Below are positions 25,795-63,052 of a DNA stretch of 64,000 nt, one piece after another (within the stretch, counting starts at the first letter, position 1; each line of letters starts with the position of its first letter). The notes below the pieces were generated by a model, which worked only from the letters and a program-made list of their open reading frames with translations, searched no databases and had not been told where the DNA came from. A program made the translations under genes and the position numbers. Origin of the DNA: Paraspadella gotoi (Eukaryota; Animalia; Chaetognatha); contig CM119263.1 of assembly GCA_051294375.1 (NCBI GenBank), positions 2,070,113-2,134,112 of the forward strand, read 5' to 3'.

Positions 25795-30311
<4,517 letters not shown>

Positions 30312-31211: not shown

Positions 31212-33846
31212 TCAAACATGTTTCGCGAAATGTGGCGCCCCTTTCGGCGGCGCCGGATTGTTCGTCTTCTTCCCGCTTTCGGCGTCGATGAGCGGCGTCA
31301 CGGCTCGATTGGCGCTCATTTGCGGTGCCACGACCTTCGCCACGTAGACGGCGCCGGCAACGCCTCCGCCGACGACGACGCAAGCACCGAGAACGGCGCC
31401 GACGATGACGCCGACGTTGGGACCGGGTTCCGGTTCCGGCTCTTTCGTCGGTGCCGGCTCCCGGATGTAATCGACGTTGGAGGCGTCCTTGTCGACGATG
31501 ACGTCGCTGAATTCGTGACCGGAATTGACGAGCGATTCCAAGTAGAACATCTGAGTTCCTTGGGTGTAGCTTCTTTCTTCCGGGTCCCAGTCTTGGGGAA
31601 GTTCGATGTAGAAGCTGCGGGGGGAAAGGAGAGAAAAGGAAAAAACTAAATTTCTTTTCTTTTCTTTTCTTTTCTTTTCTTTTCTTTTCTTTTCTTTTCT
31701 TTTCTTTTCTTTTCTTTTCTTTTCTTTTCTTTTCTTTTCTTTTCTTTTCTTTTCCTCTCCTTTCCCTCATTCTTTCTTTCTCCTCTTTCTACCATCCCTC
31801 CATCCTTCATCCCCTTTCTTACTTTATAAAGGGTCGAGTGACGCCGTTCGCCGTGTGAGTCCCCAAATTGAACTTTGTGTACGAGGCGTTGATGAGCATG
31901 TAGTAGGTCTCAAACTCGTTCTGGATCGGGCGGGCTTCTAACTGCATGCCGGGATTCCGGAGATTGAGAACGATGGTGGCGTTGATGGCGATGATGCGTC
32001 GTGTTTGGCAAGGAGTTGCCTCGCGGGTCTGAAGGCGGAAAGATAATTGTATTTAAAGATCAATTTTAGTTTTTAACTTTTTTAACGCTAAGAATATAAT
32101 TTTGAAATTGAGTATGTGGCGGGCATTGCCCAGGCTCACGGCGCATAGAAATATCAACCCCGTAGAGACCTGGTGGCTCATTGAGCAAAGCCTTCAGCTA
32201 GGAACCACTAGGAACCCGGTTCAATCCTAACCCTTATTCTTTGAAGACCGTGAGGATATCCCTCAAGCCTCGTTCCAAGCCCAGGACCCGTTTCATGGCA
32301 GCTAGAGGGTAGTTGAGGAAGTCTTCAGCCCACTTAGCGCCTTATTCAAAAGTTGTTTTTTTTCTATTTCGACTGTTAAAATTCGCCTGATACTATTGCA
32401 ATCATTGCAAAAAATAGATAGAAGGATCCCCTGTCCTTTCCCCACCCTTCAACACTCCCCACCTCACTCACATCCTATGCTACCACCCCACCCCACCTCC
32501 ATCACCTCTCTGAGGGTCTCGGTTCCCTCGATCTTAATCCCCATCTGATCCACGCACCAACACAACCCGTACGACGCCGTCTGGCATTGCATCGGCATGT
32601 AGTGCTTGTCTACGCCGCAATCGGGCGTCGTGGAGACGGAGATGGAGGCGGCGGTCTTGACGAGGGCGTCCGCGCGAAGGCGACGACACTTGGAGACAAA
32701 GTCGAAGCAGCCGTGGTAAGGGAGGCCGTCCTGGTCGAGATAGCTGGCCTGGCAGACGGGCGTTGAGGTCATGTTCCAGGCGCTGGTGCAGGTGGGCTCC
32801 TCTCCGTACAAGAGGCAGGGAGTCTCCACGCACTTGTTGCAAACGCCGAGGGTGGTTGGGGGCTCGGTGGTTGTAGGAGGATCTGTTGTGGCTGCCATTG
32901 TGGATGCCGCCATAGTACTTGCGACTGAATCAGTTGCGGCAACACTAGCACTTGAAGCATCAGATCCAGCAACATTAGTTGTTCCTGCTGCTGTTGTGGC
33001 ATCTGTACCAGCTGCATTAGTTGATTCAGCAACAGTAGTGACACTTGCAGCTGTTGTAGCGCCAGTATTAGAAGATCCAGCAGCGGTTGTGGCACTGCTA
33101 TCAGTTGTAGCGTCATTGGTAGCTCCTGTGATTGTAGTAGCACTGCTGTCTGTCGTAGCACCTGTGTTTGCAGCATTGGTTGCTCCTGCAACTGTCGTGG
33201 CACTGCTATCTGTTGTCGCACCTGTGTTTGCAGCATTGGTTGCTCCTGCAACTGTCGTGGCACTGCTGTCTGTTGTAGCACCTGTGTTTGCAGCATTGGT
33301 TGCTCCTGCAACTGTAGTGGCACTGCTATCTGTTGTAGCACCTGTGTTTGCAGCATTAGTTGCTCCTGCAACTGTTGTGGCACTGCTATCTGTTGTAGCA
33401 CCTGTGTTTGCAGCATTGGTTGCTCCAGCTACTGTTGTGGCACTGCTGTCTGTTGTAGCACCTGTGTTTGCTGCATTGGTTGCTCCTGCAACTGTTGTGG
33501 CAATGCTGTCTGTTGTAGCACTGCTGTCTGTTGTAGCACCTGTGTTTGCAGCATTGGTTGCTCCTGCAACAGTTGTGGCACTGCTATCTGTGGTAGCTCC
33601 AGTATTTGCAGCATTTGTTGCCCCAGCAGTCGTGGCGCTAGCGACGGTGGTGACCTGAGTACCAGCGGCATTCGTTGTCCCAGCTGCGGCTGTCCCTGCC
33701 ACTGTTGTCCCTGCTGCGGTTGCCCCTGCTGCGGTTGTCCCTGCTGCGGTGGTGACAACGGTGGGCGCCTCCGTCGATAGCGAATTAACAACAACAACAG
33801 AGAATCCGAGCAAATATAAAGAAAGAATCCACGTCGACATTTCCAT
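31212..33846 (-). CDS. EpCAM/Trop2-like type I membrane glycoprotein with N-terminal mucin-like stalk and thyroglobulin type-1 domain, 649 aa, 3 exons
   Basis: Exons 33846-32506, 32028-31823 and 31614-31212, GT-AG, phases 0 and 2 consistent, 1950 nt. It has a signal peptide, Thr/Ala repeats, a 6-Cys domain and a TY domain (KC..PDC..QC..CWCVD..G..PC). A Cys-free ~110-aa domain, the TM VGVIVGAVLGACVVVGGGVAGAVYV and a short tail follow. AATAAA on - at 31147-31152. Confidence 0.85.
32125..32345 (+). mobile_element. tRNA-derived SINE, family B copy 2 (in intron 1 of the EpCAM-like gene, antisense)
   Basis: A box TGGCTCATTGAG at 32174-32185 and B box GGTTCAATCC at 32218-32227. Homologous to 28816-29075. 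Confidence 0.75.
33125..33623 (-). repeat. Coding 60-bp tandem repeat, 8 copies of GATNAANTGATTDSSATTVA
   Basis: Visible 60-nt periodicity; one copy has an extra 18-nt duplication. Confidence 0.95.
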
Positions 33847-37482: not shown

Positions 37483-43956
<6,474 letters not shown>

Positions 43957-44322: not shown

Positions 44323-45675
44323 TCACTCGATCTCTTGATCGAACATTCTCCTGGCCGCCGCCATCACGCCCCTCGTGTCCGCCAACTCGTTGGGCGGGAT
44401 GGCGTACTGCGTGGGTTTGGTCACCGCGTCTCTGTCCCAATCCTTCATGTCACCGCAGCGACAACCGTCGTTGACCCAAACTCCTTCGTTGACCTGACCC
44501 GTGGTCAGGTAATAGAACCGACCCGGTCCGTTCTTCTTGTCGTTCATCCACGACCCTGTTGAGAAAAGGGGGGGGGCGGCGAGGCGATAAGAATGTTATA
44601 TCTGTTTAGAAAAGTAGAGCAGAAAGTAAGCTTAACTTCCGTTGTATCTAGACGCTCCCTCTAGTTCCAAAATACAACACCTACATCCCCTTCACCGACC
44701 GACCGACCGACTGACTAACCGACTTAACTACCGACCAACTTACCTACCAACCAACCGACTGAATTACAAGTCAAACGACCAACTGATCGACCGACTGACC
44801 AACCAATTGACCTACCGACAACTAACAGACTGAGCGACCGACTTACCATCGACCGACTGACCTACTGACCGATCGATTGACCTACCGATCTTACCGCCCT
44901 TACTTACCCTCGAATTACCCTCGAATTACTTACCCTCGTATCGAGTATTATTCGGGAGACGAATCAACCCTTCCCCGTTCCGTTTGTCGTCGTGCCACGC
45001 CCCCTCGTAGATGCTACCGTCGGCGTAGAACATGCGGCCCCATCCACTTCGCTTGTTCGCGTACCTTGATTCGTTATAAGAGGAGGCAACACTAACAGCA
45101 CAATGCCAATAATAGATAAGTAACGTTAGGTGTAAATATTTAAAAATAAATTTTCAATCTGACAAAAAGGCAAAAAATTATTATCATTATTTTTTAATTT
45201 TTTTTTGCAATTCTCGATATACAATCGATATAAATATATAATATAAAAAAATTGATAAAATTAAATTTCAATTCAATAGATTTGACAACATTGATTTTAT
45301 TGCTTTTATTGAATTATGATAAGTTCGTTGATTAGATTTTGTATTAGAGCCGATTAAAATGAATTTGAAAGTAATTCGATTCACCGTTCCCTGACTCACT
45401 CGGTCACTCACTCACTCACTCACTCAGTTACTCACCACTCTCCCTCGTAATATTCCTCGTCCGTATAAAAGTGAGTCCCGTATCCGTGACGCTTGTCATC
45501 TTTCCAACCGCCGGTGTATCGCTTCTTATACCCGCCGCCAGAAGGAAAACTTAGCGTACCGTAACCGTTGCGTTTGTTCAACGCCCAGTCGCCGTCGTAG
45601 ATGAAGCCGTTCTGTGATTGATTGATTGATCGATCGATCGATGGATTGAATTTCGTCAGCTCGATGCAAAAATCA

Positions 45676-45745
<70 letters not shown>

Positions 45746-45983
45746 CGAGAGCGGAAAAACCGTTAAAGAGAGAGTGAAGTAGAGTCACTGAAATGAATTG
45801 ACTTTTGACCTTCTTCCATTTAAACGTCCCGTGACCGCTCTTAAGATTGTCGAGCCACTCGCCCTTGTATTCGTCACCATTGATTGCGTAGACGGTGTGG
45901 TGCATCCCCTTCTTCTGCGCCTTTTCGTCAGCGTCGATCCACAGTTGGCGCACGTAGCGCTTCGCCTTCCACTGTTGCGCCAT
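44323..45983 (-). CDS. MORN3: MORN repeat-containing protein 3, 237 aa, 4 exons
   Basis: Exons 45983-45810, 45611-45436, 45064-44934 and 44555-44323, 714 nt, phases consistent. It has repeated Y-x-G-x-W..K-x-x-G-x-G MORN motifs, and MORN3-typical ends LW..D.KAQK.G...VYAINGD and CG.M.D..RD....PTQYAIP. Confidence 0.92.
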
Positions 45984-47831: not shown

Positions 47832-49716
<1,885 letters not shown>

Positions 49717-50754
49717 GTTTGAATTGGGATGAGAGCACGCAATTGATTATGGCTGCAATGAGGAACCACGACCCTCGATGCCAAATGGATGTCGATGTCG
49801 GAATCTCCGAAAGGCGAAGTCGCCTCCCAACGCAAACGTCGTCCAAAAACGGAACGCTAAACTCATTTTAAAATTTGCTAATACAGTTTGCCCATTTGTA
49901 AACAATCACCGAAATAGTTTTTTACCTTTACTATTTACTTTGCGATACTAAGTGAGTTACATTTTCTCTGTATAAAATTACCCTATTTTCGCATATCATC
50001 ATATCATATCATCTCGTAATACCCGTAATATCGTTATATATTCCCTGAAAAATTGTCGTTTAATTTATGAAAATGGTCGCCCAATCACGGCATACAGTCA
50101 CGAATCACTGTGAAAACTTTGCATACGCCATACAGTCATCCAATCATATACAGTCACCCTTTTGGTTACGCGGAGATCTAATGAACGTAACCACGACGGC
50201 CGGCGGCCGGACGAGACGGATCCTGTTTTCACGACTTCGTAAATTCTGACCCAAAAAGTTGATCCTCGAGGGAAGGAAAATCGGGGATGACCGAGGGGTC
50301 AATCGAGGGGACCAGCGGCAGGAATTACCGATCGGAGACGGAGCTTTCGAACCACCGACCACAATCGAAGACTCATCGAACCGACCACCGACCACTGGCC
50401 GCACCGCCGAGTGTAAAACCGACCGTAAAGGGTGGGGAAGCCGCGGACCGTAGAGTCGACGATTAATTCCGATGATGACGCGTCCGTCAATTCGCGGCCT
50501 TAAAGGTAAGTGAATTCCTTGGAGGTGAGAGGCCAGTTTGTTCAGCTGATCAGGAAAGTTGAGAATGGTTTATGTTTATTATCTTTAAATAGAAGGGTTC
50601 TATCCTCCTCTATCCTCCTGTAACTTCCACCTAACCTCCCTCACATTCTGCTCCTCTTTCTCTCTTCTTCCTCGTTCCCACGCCCGGCTCACTTCCCAGA
50701 GGCCGTCCGCGAGAGACGCTTTGCATCAACGAAATCATCGGTTCCAGTCTTCCC

Positions 50755-58049: not shown

Positions 58050-61000
58050 CCCCAATTCCTACCCTAAAGGGAGGCTGGCATGAATGAAAAATACAAGAAT
58101 CGCTTTGGGTCTTTTTGTTGGCATTTCTAATCTCGCTTGGGATGAAAAAAAAAATTAATCAACGCTTCTCTATGTTTATTTTAGTTTCCGGTTTCTCGTT
58201 AAAAAACAAAATTCAATTCGATTCGAAGAAAAATAGAATGGTGATGGCTAATATTCCTTTTTTCCCTTTTGCGGCAGAAGGCGACGGAGGTTGCTGCAAA
58301 TGCATGGACCGTTGCTGCGACTGTCTCGGCCGCATCCCCTGCGCGTCCACTCTCGCCCTCACACTCCTTCTCTCCGGATTGGCGGGCTTCGCCGCTTCCC
58401 TCATCGTCGCCGTACAGAAAACCAGAGACGCTTTCGACACAGTCAGCCAGTGAGTTCATGAGGCTGTGGCCTTTTTTTTTGTTATACTTTTTGGTTCTTT
58501 TTTTTAAATTAGTAAATTTTATAAAGGATTTTATGCACTATTTTTCGAAAGCGCCTCATTTCTGATCCTAATCCTTAAAATAAATTTTAAGTCAAATATT
58601 TAAGCATATTTATTTGCCAAATATTTAACCAAACCCTCATACTTAATCTTTACCTCATCCATAACTCTAATCTTTAACCTCGATCCCTAAACTTTTCCTT
58701 TCACTATAAAAACCTAATTTTTAATGCTAAAGCAAATCCTAAACTATAATACCCAAATATTAATATTAATCCGAAATGTTATCCTTTACCCTTGACTTTA
58801 AACTTAAGAACAATTCAAGCTGAAATTAGGTACTTATGGAAAATATGGCGATTTTTTTATTTGTGAGATTTATTGTTTTTGACTTTCAGGCGGAAGTTGT
58901 TTCTGGGTTTATTTTTTTACTGGAGATTTCAGTCTTGAATAAATCTAGACATTGTTCTAGGTGTTGTTATATATATTGTTATTTATATTGTTATTTATAT
59001 TGCTCAAATCTATCTTTTATTCAGATTGGACCCGAAGTATAAATCATTAGGAGATGGAAATCTTTTAAGGTAAATCAATCGGAGATTTTTCAGGGGTTTT
59101 CAAGTTAGGATAATAAATATTTAATGTTGTATCATTTAATAAGAGTTCGTTGTAATTTTTTTACTTTTTGCAAAAAAAAAAACAACAAATTATCACTCCG
59201 TATTTTTCCCGACTCATAGTGGTGTCTTTTGTTATTAATGAAAGCTCGTAGAATAGGTTGAACAAACAAACGAGACTTTGATAAATCATTGATATTTTTC
59301 ACTGATCTTTATTTCACCATCCAACTTGCTTTGCTTTCTTTGCTGTCACTCCCTCACATCCGTCCGTGATTTGACATAATTCTTCACTCGCTTTGAACTT
59401 ATCTCACTAAATCAACTTTACCATCAGTACCAGTGATCTTGGCCCGATTCCGTAAGTATCAAACTTTTTTCGCTCATCCATCACGTTGTAGCACAATTTT
59501 ATGTTTCTCCCAATTTTGTTTAATTTAGTTTTGTATTTTTTTACACCAAATGGTCACAAAAAGGCTCGGAAATTTGGTTTAAGAAAAGTCATCTTTGACA
59601 ATTTCAATCAAGCCACAGTTATCAGTTCGAAGTAGTAAAAAATATCTGGGAATATTTTGGGAGAACGTGAAATCATCCTTAGTGGCATTAGTGATGTTAT
59701 ATAACTTTATAAAACAAAGAAGAACAATTGTAAAATATTTCAATATCATTTATAGATTCCTTAGTTTTATCGCTATTTAAAAAAAAATTGGTAACTTTGA
59801 TCGTTATGCAATGTTCCAGCAAACTTAAAATAAAAGAATTTATAACTATCTGAGCGTCATAGTTCATCTAGGTTTTTTTCGGCCGTTTTTCGATTCTCTT
59901 CACCAATTTTCACGTTAATATTTGAATAACCTTTAAATTTATAGAAAAATTTAAAGGAAAAACTGCAGTATGCACGAATAATTGAATATTTTTTTAAGTT
60001 TTTATATTTTTTTCAAACTTAGTTAATGGTTAACAACTTTTTTAGTAAAACTATCAAAAATACAAAACGCCCTTTTCCCCCTTCCACGTTTCTTTCCTTC
60101 GACGATCAGGCTGGCCCTCATGGAGACCGTGGTCCTCAGCATCTGCGTTGGGATGGTCCTTTTGTCTTGCATCTTCTTATCCATCGCTTTTCTGTCTTCC
60201 GGTGCGACGCGGCGCCACCTGTTTGGCGGAAAGCGATCGCACAACATCTGCGGTCGCGTCACCAACGGAATCGTGAGTTTGAGGATGTTGGAGGCAATTG
60301 GAGCAAAGTCGATCAAGTGATAGGATCAATCAATCATTTTTATTATTTTAACGAAGGAAGTAGGCGTTGTTTATTGAAGAGAATTTGAGGAGTTTTATTA
60401 ACATTAGTAAGATAACGATAATTTATGGAGATTATGTAAACAAATACAATAAATAGAATTTGAAGTTGATATCTTGAAGGTAAGTTGAAGACTGATCTCG
60501 TTCCCCCTCCTCCTTCCCTGCCGTCGGTTTCCTCTGATTGGTCAATCAGAAGAAAAGACGGAAAAGCCAAGAGATTCAAACAATATGGTCTATCGGGTTC
60601 ATATACTGGTCCGTTTCCTGCAATGTAATAAGTTTTTTTAAAAATAAAGATAAAGTAAAGTTTACGTTATAACCAGAATAATAGAAAAACTGCTCCTTTG
60701 AAACAGCAAGAAACAAACTGAATTCAGACGTGATGGGGGGGACGGAGCGTCTCCTCAAGCGACAGAATAAATCACAAAATAAATCACTTTTGTTTGTGGG
60801 GCGGAAAGAAATGATTTTAATGCTTGGACATTTGTTAGGACTTAAAAAGTGTCTGACTATAGAAAATTTTAAAAAATCACAGTATTATTAATATTTAACA
60901 TTTTCAAGAAAGTGAATGAATTTGATGTTGAAGAAATTTGAGCGGTTTCCAAAATTTGTCTTTTTTTTTTAGCTCTTAGTCTAAATTCGTTCCAAGTTCA

Positions 61001-63052
61001 TTTCTAAGCGGCACAGAGAAATGGATTTCTCCCTGGTGCCTCCTTTCTAAAATGTGAAGAGGCCAACTGCTTTTTAGACTTACCCGTCTGGGTGGGGAAC
61101 GACGCAGCTTCGGCGGTGGTTGAGGCCAATCGTGGCTCGAGGGATATGAGTGGCTTAGAAGGGGATTTATCAGCCAGGAGGAGAACTCGTGAATCGAAAA
61201 AAAAACCAAAAAACATTCGAGTCTTTAAAGAAAAAAAAACATCGATTGTCTGATTATTATTTTTAAATTTCGAAATTAAAATCTAAGACAAATTCTATGT
61301 AATAACAAAATATGGAAGTGTGCAGGAGGAATTACTAAAACTTCAGTATATAAATGGCTAAAAATTGTCTCAGAAAGGCAAGCCAATATTTAAAATGACA
61401 AATGATTCCGACTGGATAAGCGACCGGGAAGTGATCGATGCCTCATGAGGAGACGAGACCGAAAAAAAAATCACTCTAAGGCTCCAATCCCCACAGCTCA
61501 CTTTCACTTCCCGATACCCGGCTTCTCCCCTCCGTGAAAGTCAGGTTTCCTCAGAGCCGGTGATTGACGCTGCAAGGTCGGTTGGAAGGTCACGGTTCAA
61601 GGTTCCCGCGAAACCGAAAAAAAAAGCAAACGAAAAAAGTATAAAGCACAAATCAAACGAATATAAATCGAATCAATTGGTAAATCGTGTTTACCGAAAG
61701 GCGGAAGTTCAGATATTTTCTAAATCGAAAGGCGAATTTTCGTCCCGCATTTTTTGCGGTTTTGGCCAAAAAGAGGGAGAGGGGACCTGGGGTCGGAATA
61801 GAGGGTGGAGACAGAATACTGAACGTAAAAGCGTTTGAAGAATAATGAGTTGATTGAAAAAAAAGGGGAAAAAATAAGAAAGACGCTCAGCCTTTCGAAA
61901 AAAAGAAGAAAAAAAGAAAGTAAGAAAGAAAGAAAGAAGCTCAGTAAAAAAACTAAAAAGATTGATATATAGAAACGAAATAAAAATATGTAATTAAAAA
62001 AAAAACGAAAAAACTTTAAAAAAAAGAAATATAAGCTAAAAATAATACTAATAATATTCCTCAGTTTCGCTTACTTGCTTACTAAAAGCCAAGCGACCCA
62101 ATCCTTTAATCTCTATTATTTCCCTTCATAGATGTTCGGTCTCGGCTACATCGTGAACGTGGCTTGGGTCGCCGTCAGCGGGTGTCTGGCCATTCCCGTC
62201 TTCATTCTCGCCATCCTTCATCGTCGCTGCGGCACCATCGTCCTGGACAACGGATCCCAGACTTGCTTCACGCCCTCGGACTACGCCATCACCACCGAGG
62301 AATACAAAATCTGCGGGGCTCACTTGCAAAAATTCTGTGTCTTGGTGAGAATACTTTTCCGTAGATGTATTAACTGCAGCTGCTTAATTTCGAATTAGAA
62401 ATTGTTAAATTTGACCTTAAAAACGTAAAATTATTTTGAGGGGCTAGTATTAATATTAATATATATAATATAACATTATTAATAGTATTAATTGTTTTCT
62501 CTCCAGGGTGACGACGCTTTTCCAGCTTACATCGCAGCCTACGTTTCTTCAGTAGTTGTCGTTATTAGCACAGTAAGTTCTTTCAATTTTTAAACTTGAT
62601 CTGCCATATTTTTCATATTTCTTTTTAATTTGACAATTTTATTATTTCTGTTCTAATAAAAAATTTTCATAAATTATTTACTTGTTTCACTATTTTATAT
62701 TTTTATATTTTGAGCTGTCTTTTTGTTTTTTTTATTACCGCAAAATCACTGATATCGTTTTCGATTAGCAGTGCACTCTAACGTACAGAAAAGAAACAAA
62801 AGCGCAATTTTTATAGCATTCATAATTGTTTGTCGATCAGATTAGGTTTGTGAGTTGTCTCATAATAAAAATATTATAAGTTAACAAAAGAAACAAAGGA
62901 TTTTGATATTTTCATTATTTTTACAGATTCACTTCCTCGTTACCATCACGGCGAACTATGCGCATATAAAAAAGGACAGCAGCAACTCGTGGCACGGCGG
63001 AAGCGAGGACTACGTCGGGTCCACAAACACAATTGAGAACACGAAGATGTAA
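52276..63052 (+). CDS. M6: Myelin proteolipid family tetraspan protein (M6/GPM6/DM20-like), ~248 aa
   Basis: Exons 58278-58449, 60110-60272, 62132-62344, 62507-62572 and 62927-63052 are in consistent phase. Motifs are CCDCLGRIPCAS, FLSSGATR..LFG....ICGR, W......AIPVF, KICG..L..FC and IHFLVTITANYAHIK. The first coding exon is uncertain; 52276-52282 (ATGGCGG/gtaagt) was chosen. Confidence 0.88.
58539..58845. mobile_element. Telomere-like-array MITE copy in an M6 intron
   Basis: Imperfect TIRs tatttttcgaaagcgcctca and tattttccataagtacctaa (reverse complement of the right end), with an internal CCCTAA-like degenerate array. Confidence 0.55.

Follow-up and report, generated by a model that had tools for sequence, protein, structure and literature searches.

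A candidate membrane mucin with an EpCAM-like extracellular layout and its relation to invertebrate TY-SEA membrane proteins

A minus-strand gene at 31212..33846 of a 64,000-nucleotide stretch of animal DNA (contig CM119263.1, positions 2,070,113 to 2,134,112; hereafter the window) encodes a protein of 649 residues which, on balance, appears to be a divergent membrane mucin carrying an EpCAM-type module, i.e., a distant cousin that shares with EpCAM an old animal TY-SEA-membrane module and is not EpCAM itself. As predicted, it is a new domain combination, in which one EpCAM-sized unit bears a mucin-like stalk. EpCAM and Trop2 are of major importance as carcinoma markers and as targets for drugs, and their basic function is still debated. 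The EpCAM-type core of TY domain, SEA domain and transmembrane (TM) helix is shown for a protein of an acorn worm and, at the sequence level, for relatives from arthropods and coral. As this core is present in invertebrates, its ancestral job, be it protease control, shedding or the formation of a barrier, is open to study in invertebrate models.

The gene is real, and both of its introns are confirmed by one transcript-type contig. The open reading frame is joined from three minus-strand exons (33846-32506, 32028-31823 and 31614-31212) separated by GT-AG introns of 477 and 208 nt. Exon 1 (32506..33846), an open frame of 447 codons covering the signal peptide, the mucin-like stalk, the six-Cys domain and most of the TY domain, is followed by a donor GT at 32505 and by intron 1 (32029..32505, phase 0). 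Exon 2 (31823..32028) supplies the final TY Cys and the first half of the Cys-free domain, and exon 3 (31614..31212), beyond intron 2 (31615..31822, phase 2, with a TTTCT microsatellite inside), the rest of that domain, the TM helix, the tail and the stop codon. In run X1, a 1338-nt contig has intron 1 precisely removed at the joint 32028/32506, ends exon 2 at 31823 (contig letters 680-885) and continues with letters 886-1338 aligned to 31614-31162, past the stop codon, the loose end at 31614 coinciding with the end of exon 2. The same contig covers exon 1 over 32506-33110, plus 74 letters further upstream, towards the repeats, and no mismatches are listed for its exon pieces. Since this single contig bears both junctions, the spliced form exists. 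The splice support comes from one run of one study, from which the assembly itself may derive; 0.62 of sampled words were present in run X1, and its RNA nature is the tool's guess, none of the matching runs being recorded as RNA. No contig of runs X2 and X3 aligned to the gene, which is not proof of absence. Separately, intron 1 contains a dispersed repeat (window 32128-32357) with an inverted, 76-77% identical copy near 28813-29030, and contigs of run X1 cover this repeat at very high depth; it is probably a short mobile element.

The protein opens with a predicted signal peptide (33781..33846, residues ~1-22), seen as an N-terminal hydropathy peak without a dedicated predictor, and continues into a Thr/Ala/Ser-rich mucin-like stalk (32848..33780) of ~310 aa. 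The stalk is rich in Thr (94 of 309 residues), Ala (89) and Ser (31), contains 20-aa (60-nt) tandem repeats (TRF period 60, 6.8 copies, with the core motif found eight times), and has a G+C content at third codon positions (GC3) of 0.29 as opposed to 0.77 in the rest. Next comes a six-Cys microdomain (32701..32847; Cys residues 336-380, gaps 2,4,8,11,14), the last Cys of which lies 6 residues ahead of the first Cys of a TY type-1A domain (32008..32700; residues 387-454) with six Cys and a CWCV motif, split by intron 1. The TY domain corresponds to Pfam PF00086 (E 1.8e-12, 46.9 bits at a cut-off of 20.6), found once, in exon 1, and TY was the only family listed in the Pfam scan of the exon pieces, which gave no EpCAM family. 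A single-sequence AF2 model of the Cys-rich part reached a predicted local distance difference test score (pLDDT) of 39. The Cys-free domain that follows (31449..32007; residues 455-571, 117 aa), split by intron 2, is likely of the SEA type, as suggested by its position and length, and does not contain the self-cleaving SEA motif (GS and three hydrophobic residues). A predicted Gly/Ala/Val-rich TM helix (31347..31415; residues ~583-605, hydropathy peak 2.4 at residue 583) and a cytoplasmic tail of ~44 aa with the stop codon (31212..31346), without a basic cluster after the helix, complete the protein. An earlier sequence-only reading of the window had counted 12 ectodomain Cys, six of them in the TY domain, in the EpCAM order of six Cys, TY, Cys-free domain, TM and short tail; the count is borne out on the spliced frame (residues 336-454, with no further Cys until the membrane helix), and the order by PF00086, the Cys count and hydropathy. 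That reading missed ~1 kb of the same open frame (32848-33846), which encodes the signal peptide and stalk. At the level of sequence the protein thus combines the features of a transmembrane mucin, namely a predicted signal peptide, a Thr/Ser-rich tandem-repeat stalk and a single TM segment.

The relatives which define the proposed module emerged from a HMMER search with the Cys-rich part against 1.84 billion representatives, which gave 227 matches at E<=0.001, the best 150 of which were examined. Ten of these 150 end in a TY domain, a Cys-poor domain, a TM helix and a tail; an eleventh member, from the coral Montipora, was missed by the layout pattern, and P0134 resembles a truncated twelfth. 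Hosts on record include the acorn worm Glandiceps, a scorpion, a firefly, a millipede, a centipede, a tick, a thrips and the coral. In the members scanned, TY and WAP domains form arrays, which in varying combination also contain Kunitz and antistasin domains, and 4-7 CWC-type motifs per protein were counted in 12 family proteins of 1043-2038 aa. The Cys-free domain of the acorn-worm protein has an EpCAM-type SEA fold, and the coral protein P0019 has a weak match to Trop2 (E 0.024) and none to EpCAM. The GS-hydrophobic self-cleavage motif is kept in 3/13 family rows (P0100, P0097, P0019), which suggests a self-cleaving ancestor. The best single-domain match among those listed is P0076 (E 6.8e-11), a 127-aa ENA fragment from a 546-nt contig, which is 36% identical to the candidate over the alignment. 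Both the six-Cys pattern and the TY domain are shared, hence the microdomain-TY unit is present in at least one other record.

As an observation in its own right, a repeated Cys-rich module, often directly ahead of a TY domain, occurs in 59 copies in 25 stored proteins (P0019, P0039, P0100 and others), and the Pfam scan of the members brought up no family that evidently describes it. An equation of the candidate's six-Cys domain with the 8-Cys module that precedes TY domains in these invertebrate proteins was tried and rejected as not significant (139/1000 Cys-fixed shuffles).

The TY-to-TM distance of the candidate, 154 residues, lies inside the 142-182 of the family, and MAFFT places the candidate collinearly on the invertebrate members. 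Further, the length of the Cys-free domain fits the family, the 6-residue link to the TY domain is shared with EpCAM, and the residues in register keep their order; these features would be unexpected under independent shuffling, in which a stalk, a TY domain and a generic SEA or other Cys-free domain came together in a membrane mucin, the EpCAM look arising from two promiscuous domains and hand-picked peptides. Several results weigh the other way. The Cys-free domain scores 1.8 bits against a 10-row family profile, with 41/2000 shuffles as good, and -0.5 bits against a 13-row profile, with 299/2000 as good, and in a semi-global test 40/200 shuffles did as well; left-out family members, the coral included, beat all 500 shuffles in 7/7 cases, and the candidate score falls inside the spread of scores from 37 control segments located behind other TY domains. 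Likewise, the six-Cys domain finds no significant counterpart in the pre-TY module, as noted above, and neither half of the Cys-free domain retrieves EpCAM from the PDB, as detailed below. The non-significant scores of the Cys-free domain are what independent shuffling predicts, TY precedes TM in many unrelated layouts, and the best named family for exon 3 in the ESM Atlas is a mucin-16-like SEA (0.79, a lead only). All Atlas matches were below 0.9, exon 3 matching SEA and unnamed clusters and exon 1 generic TY clusters. On balance, independent shuffling appears rather improbable, and the shared TY-SEA-membrane module is preferred. The candidate also lacks the arrays of TY, WAP, Kunitz and antistasin domains. 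Being the weakest-supported member of the TY-SEA-TM group, it does not by itself move the origin of the family.

The sequence-only reading had proposed a distant true EpCAM homologue that could push back the origin of the family. The second part holds in that an EpCAM-type TY-SEA-TM core exists outside vertebrates, though it is demonstrated on other public proteins and not on this gene; given that those proteins already display the core, the argument for an earlier origin does not depend on the candidate. The TACSTD genes are dated in one source (PMC7696911) merely as older than 300 million years. Word-based homologue searches yielded no full-length relative (0/43 candidates; one nidogen of 464), and a further one, of 7992 scored rows, gave only 4 rows, already known; both are weak evidence of absence. 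Metagenome scans returned 106 pattern matches, none confirmed, and a scan for the EpCAM motif returned 0. The titles and abstract openings retrieved in literature searches contained no description of an invertebrate EpCAM-type protein, although Pei and Grishin 2017, who reportedly classed the EpCAM domain as SEA, may list invertebrate homologues.

As for true homology, the layout agrees with EpCAM, whereas the Cys-free domain has no significant match, the six-Cys spacing differs and there is an extra stalk. The claimed similarity beyond the TY domain was not recovered. In a PDB search the Cys-rich part met Trop2 (E 0.032) and EpCAM (E 0.54) in the TY core only, ranking both below thyroglobulin, saxiphilin, p41 and the IGFBPs, and a two-sequence profile of the candidate and P0076 again matched EpCAM/Trop2 in the TY core alone (EpCAM E 4.4), not reaching the N-domain. 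The comparison of the Cys-free domain with EpCAM/Trop2 structures, run as exon halves, gave no EpCAM match at E<=10, exon 2 having no match and exon 3 one unrelated match. These misses are limited in their reach, since intron 2 splits the domain and only halves were searched; moreover, the acorn-worm Cys-free domain as a single sequence finds no EpCAM match in the PDB despite its EpCAM-type fold, and single-sequence misses are hence weak evidence. By eye, ~10 identities (a hand count) stand in register with EpCAM in the second half of the domain, and of the EpCAM peptides cited in the sequence-only reading three pairs (strand, helix and last strand) agree with EpCAM residues in the alignment. 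The contrast drawn there between a generic SEA domain and the EpCAM C-domain needs rewording, because the latter is itself a SEA domain without the self-cleavage motif according to a review (PMC7349879), which also states that the EpCAM/Trop2 C-domain does not significantly resemble any sequence beyond the family.

These data bear on the possibility that the gene is a true pre-vertebrate EPCAM/TACSTD2 orthologue which later gained a mucin stalk and would have an EpCAM-like role in epithelial junction control and signalling. The candidate has one TY and one six-Cys domain, as opposed to the multiple CWC-type motifs of the invertebrate family; its total of 12 Cys and 6-residue link equal those of EpCAM; its strand-to-helix spacing (hand counts) is 21, compared with 22 in EpCAM, 18 in the acorn worm and 13 in most arthropod rows, so that both this loop and the by-eye register of the C-domain are nearer to EpCAM than to the arthropod rows; and the differing GC3 and near-identical repeats of the stalk are consistent with a recent addition. 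On the other hand, the first six Cys of EpCAM are placed at 27, 29, 38, 46, 48 and 59 in PMC7497325, giving gaps of 1,8,7,1,10 which the microdomain does not share, and the first TY Cys gap is 22 rather than 32, so that the long loop of EpCAM, which is involved in its cis-dimer and protease cleavage, is missing, as is a dibasic pair in mid-loop. Additionally, the candidate has three exons, with the microdomain and TY domain on one exon and no intron between them, whereas the EPCAM gene is described as having nine, with the N-domain and TY domain on separate exons (PMC7497325); the Cys-rich profile meets EpCAM in the TY core only, and the tail lacks the basic cluster. As judged from the predicted protein, the candidate falls short of EpCAM membership in the Cys spacing of its N-domain and in the length of its TY loop, and orthology is a fairly unlikely reading. 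On a further, doubtful reading, no invertebrate protein is more closely related to EpCAM/Trop2 than the candidate, which would represent a single microdomain-TY-SEA-TM unit outside vertebrates; EpCAM would then have been cut down from ancient multi-inhibitor membrane proteins reaching back to corals, and the present lineage would have turned the unit into a membrane mucin.

In functional terms, the protein is likely to behave as a mucin whose base resembles EpCAM. The Thr/Ala stalk, which is likely O-glycosylated, would be the outermost part of the molecule and could provide an epithelial surface with a glycocalyx that protects it or hinders adhesion, with the compact microdomain-TY-SEA unit at the membrane serving as its base. 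By analogy with EpCAM, this TY-SEA base might be the site of cis-dimer contact. It might also be the site of regulated shedding, which is proposed to depend on outside proteases because the domain lacks the GS-hydrophobic motif for self-cleavage; as happens with EpCAM, further cuts might follow in the stub left in the membrane. The TY domain might bind cathepsins by analogy with thyropins (PMC10889554), although long loops are reported to prevent such binding (PMC7349879).

The neighborhood of the gene informs on its host. Exons of an endostatin-bearing collagen gene (42848-43102, plus strand), MORN3 (44323-45983, minus strand) and an M6/proteolipid-family (M6/PLP) gene (58088-63033, plus strand) lie in the window. 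The endostatin exon scores 50.6 bits against collagen XV and 48.8 bits against collagen XVIII, with ~37/85 identities to each by hand count, and this near-equality suggests a non-vertebrate animal, so that the invertebrate host proposed in the sequence-only reading is likely. A vertebrate or chordate host with a diverged EPCAM paralogue, or a joined gene model that is an artefact, is very improbable: one contig holds both junctions, the endostatin exon behaves as expected outside vertebrates, and the strong EpCAM match expected of a vertebrate paralogue was not obtained. Just upstream of the endostatin exons lies a Ser/Thr/Glu-rich open frame of 653 codons (39967-41928, plus strand) with no Pfam match, which possibly represents a collagen XV/XVIII exon that has expanded. 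Elsewhere, the opposite-strand open frames 48164-48771 and 49000-49856 have long translated stretches in common, which suggests either that the sequence was duplicated locally in inverted orientation or that the assembly is at fault here.

Among known systems, EpCAM/Trop2 (PDB 4MZV, 6I07, 7PEE, 7E5N) resemble the candidate in their succession of a six-Cys domain, a single TY-1A domain, a Cys-free domain of ~117-120 aa, TM and short tail, as well as in the 12 ectodomain Cys, the 6-residue link and the absence of a SEA self-cleavage motif; unlike them, the candidate has an extra ~310-aa stalk, another microdomain Cys spacing, a TY loop of 22 instead of 32, 3 exons instead of 9, and no significant sequence match outside the TY domain. 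P0076 shares the six-Cys pattern and TY domain, but is a fragment known from 127 aa. The multi-TY/WAP/Kunitz/antistasin proteins (XP_077995049.1 of Glandiceps, XP_023226834.1 of Centruroides and XP_068730483.1 of Montipora) have the same terminal TY, Cys-free domain, TM and tail at similar spacing, but have numerous inhibitor-type domains and are devoid of a mucin stalk, whereas the candidate has one TY only. Finally, MUC1 and MUC16 share with it the signal peptide, the tandem-repeat Thr/Ser stalk, a probable SEA domain beside one TM helix and the short tail, while the candidate differs from both in the TY and six-Cys domains between stalk and putative SEA domain and in having no self-cleavage motif.
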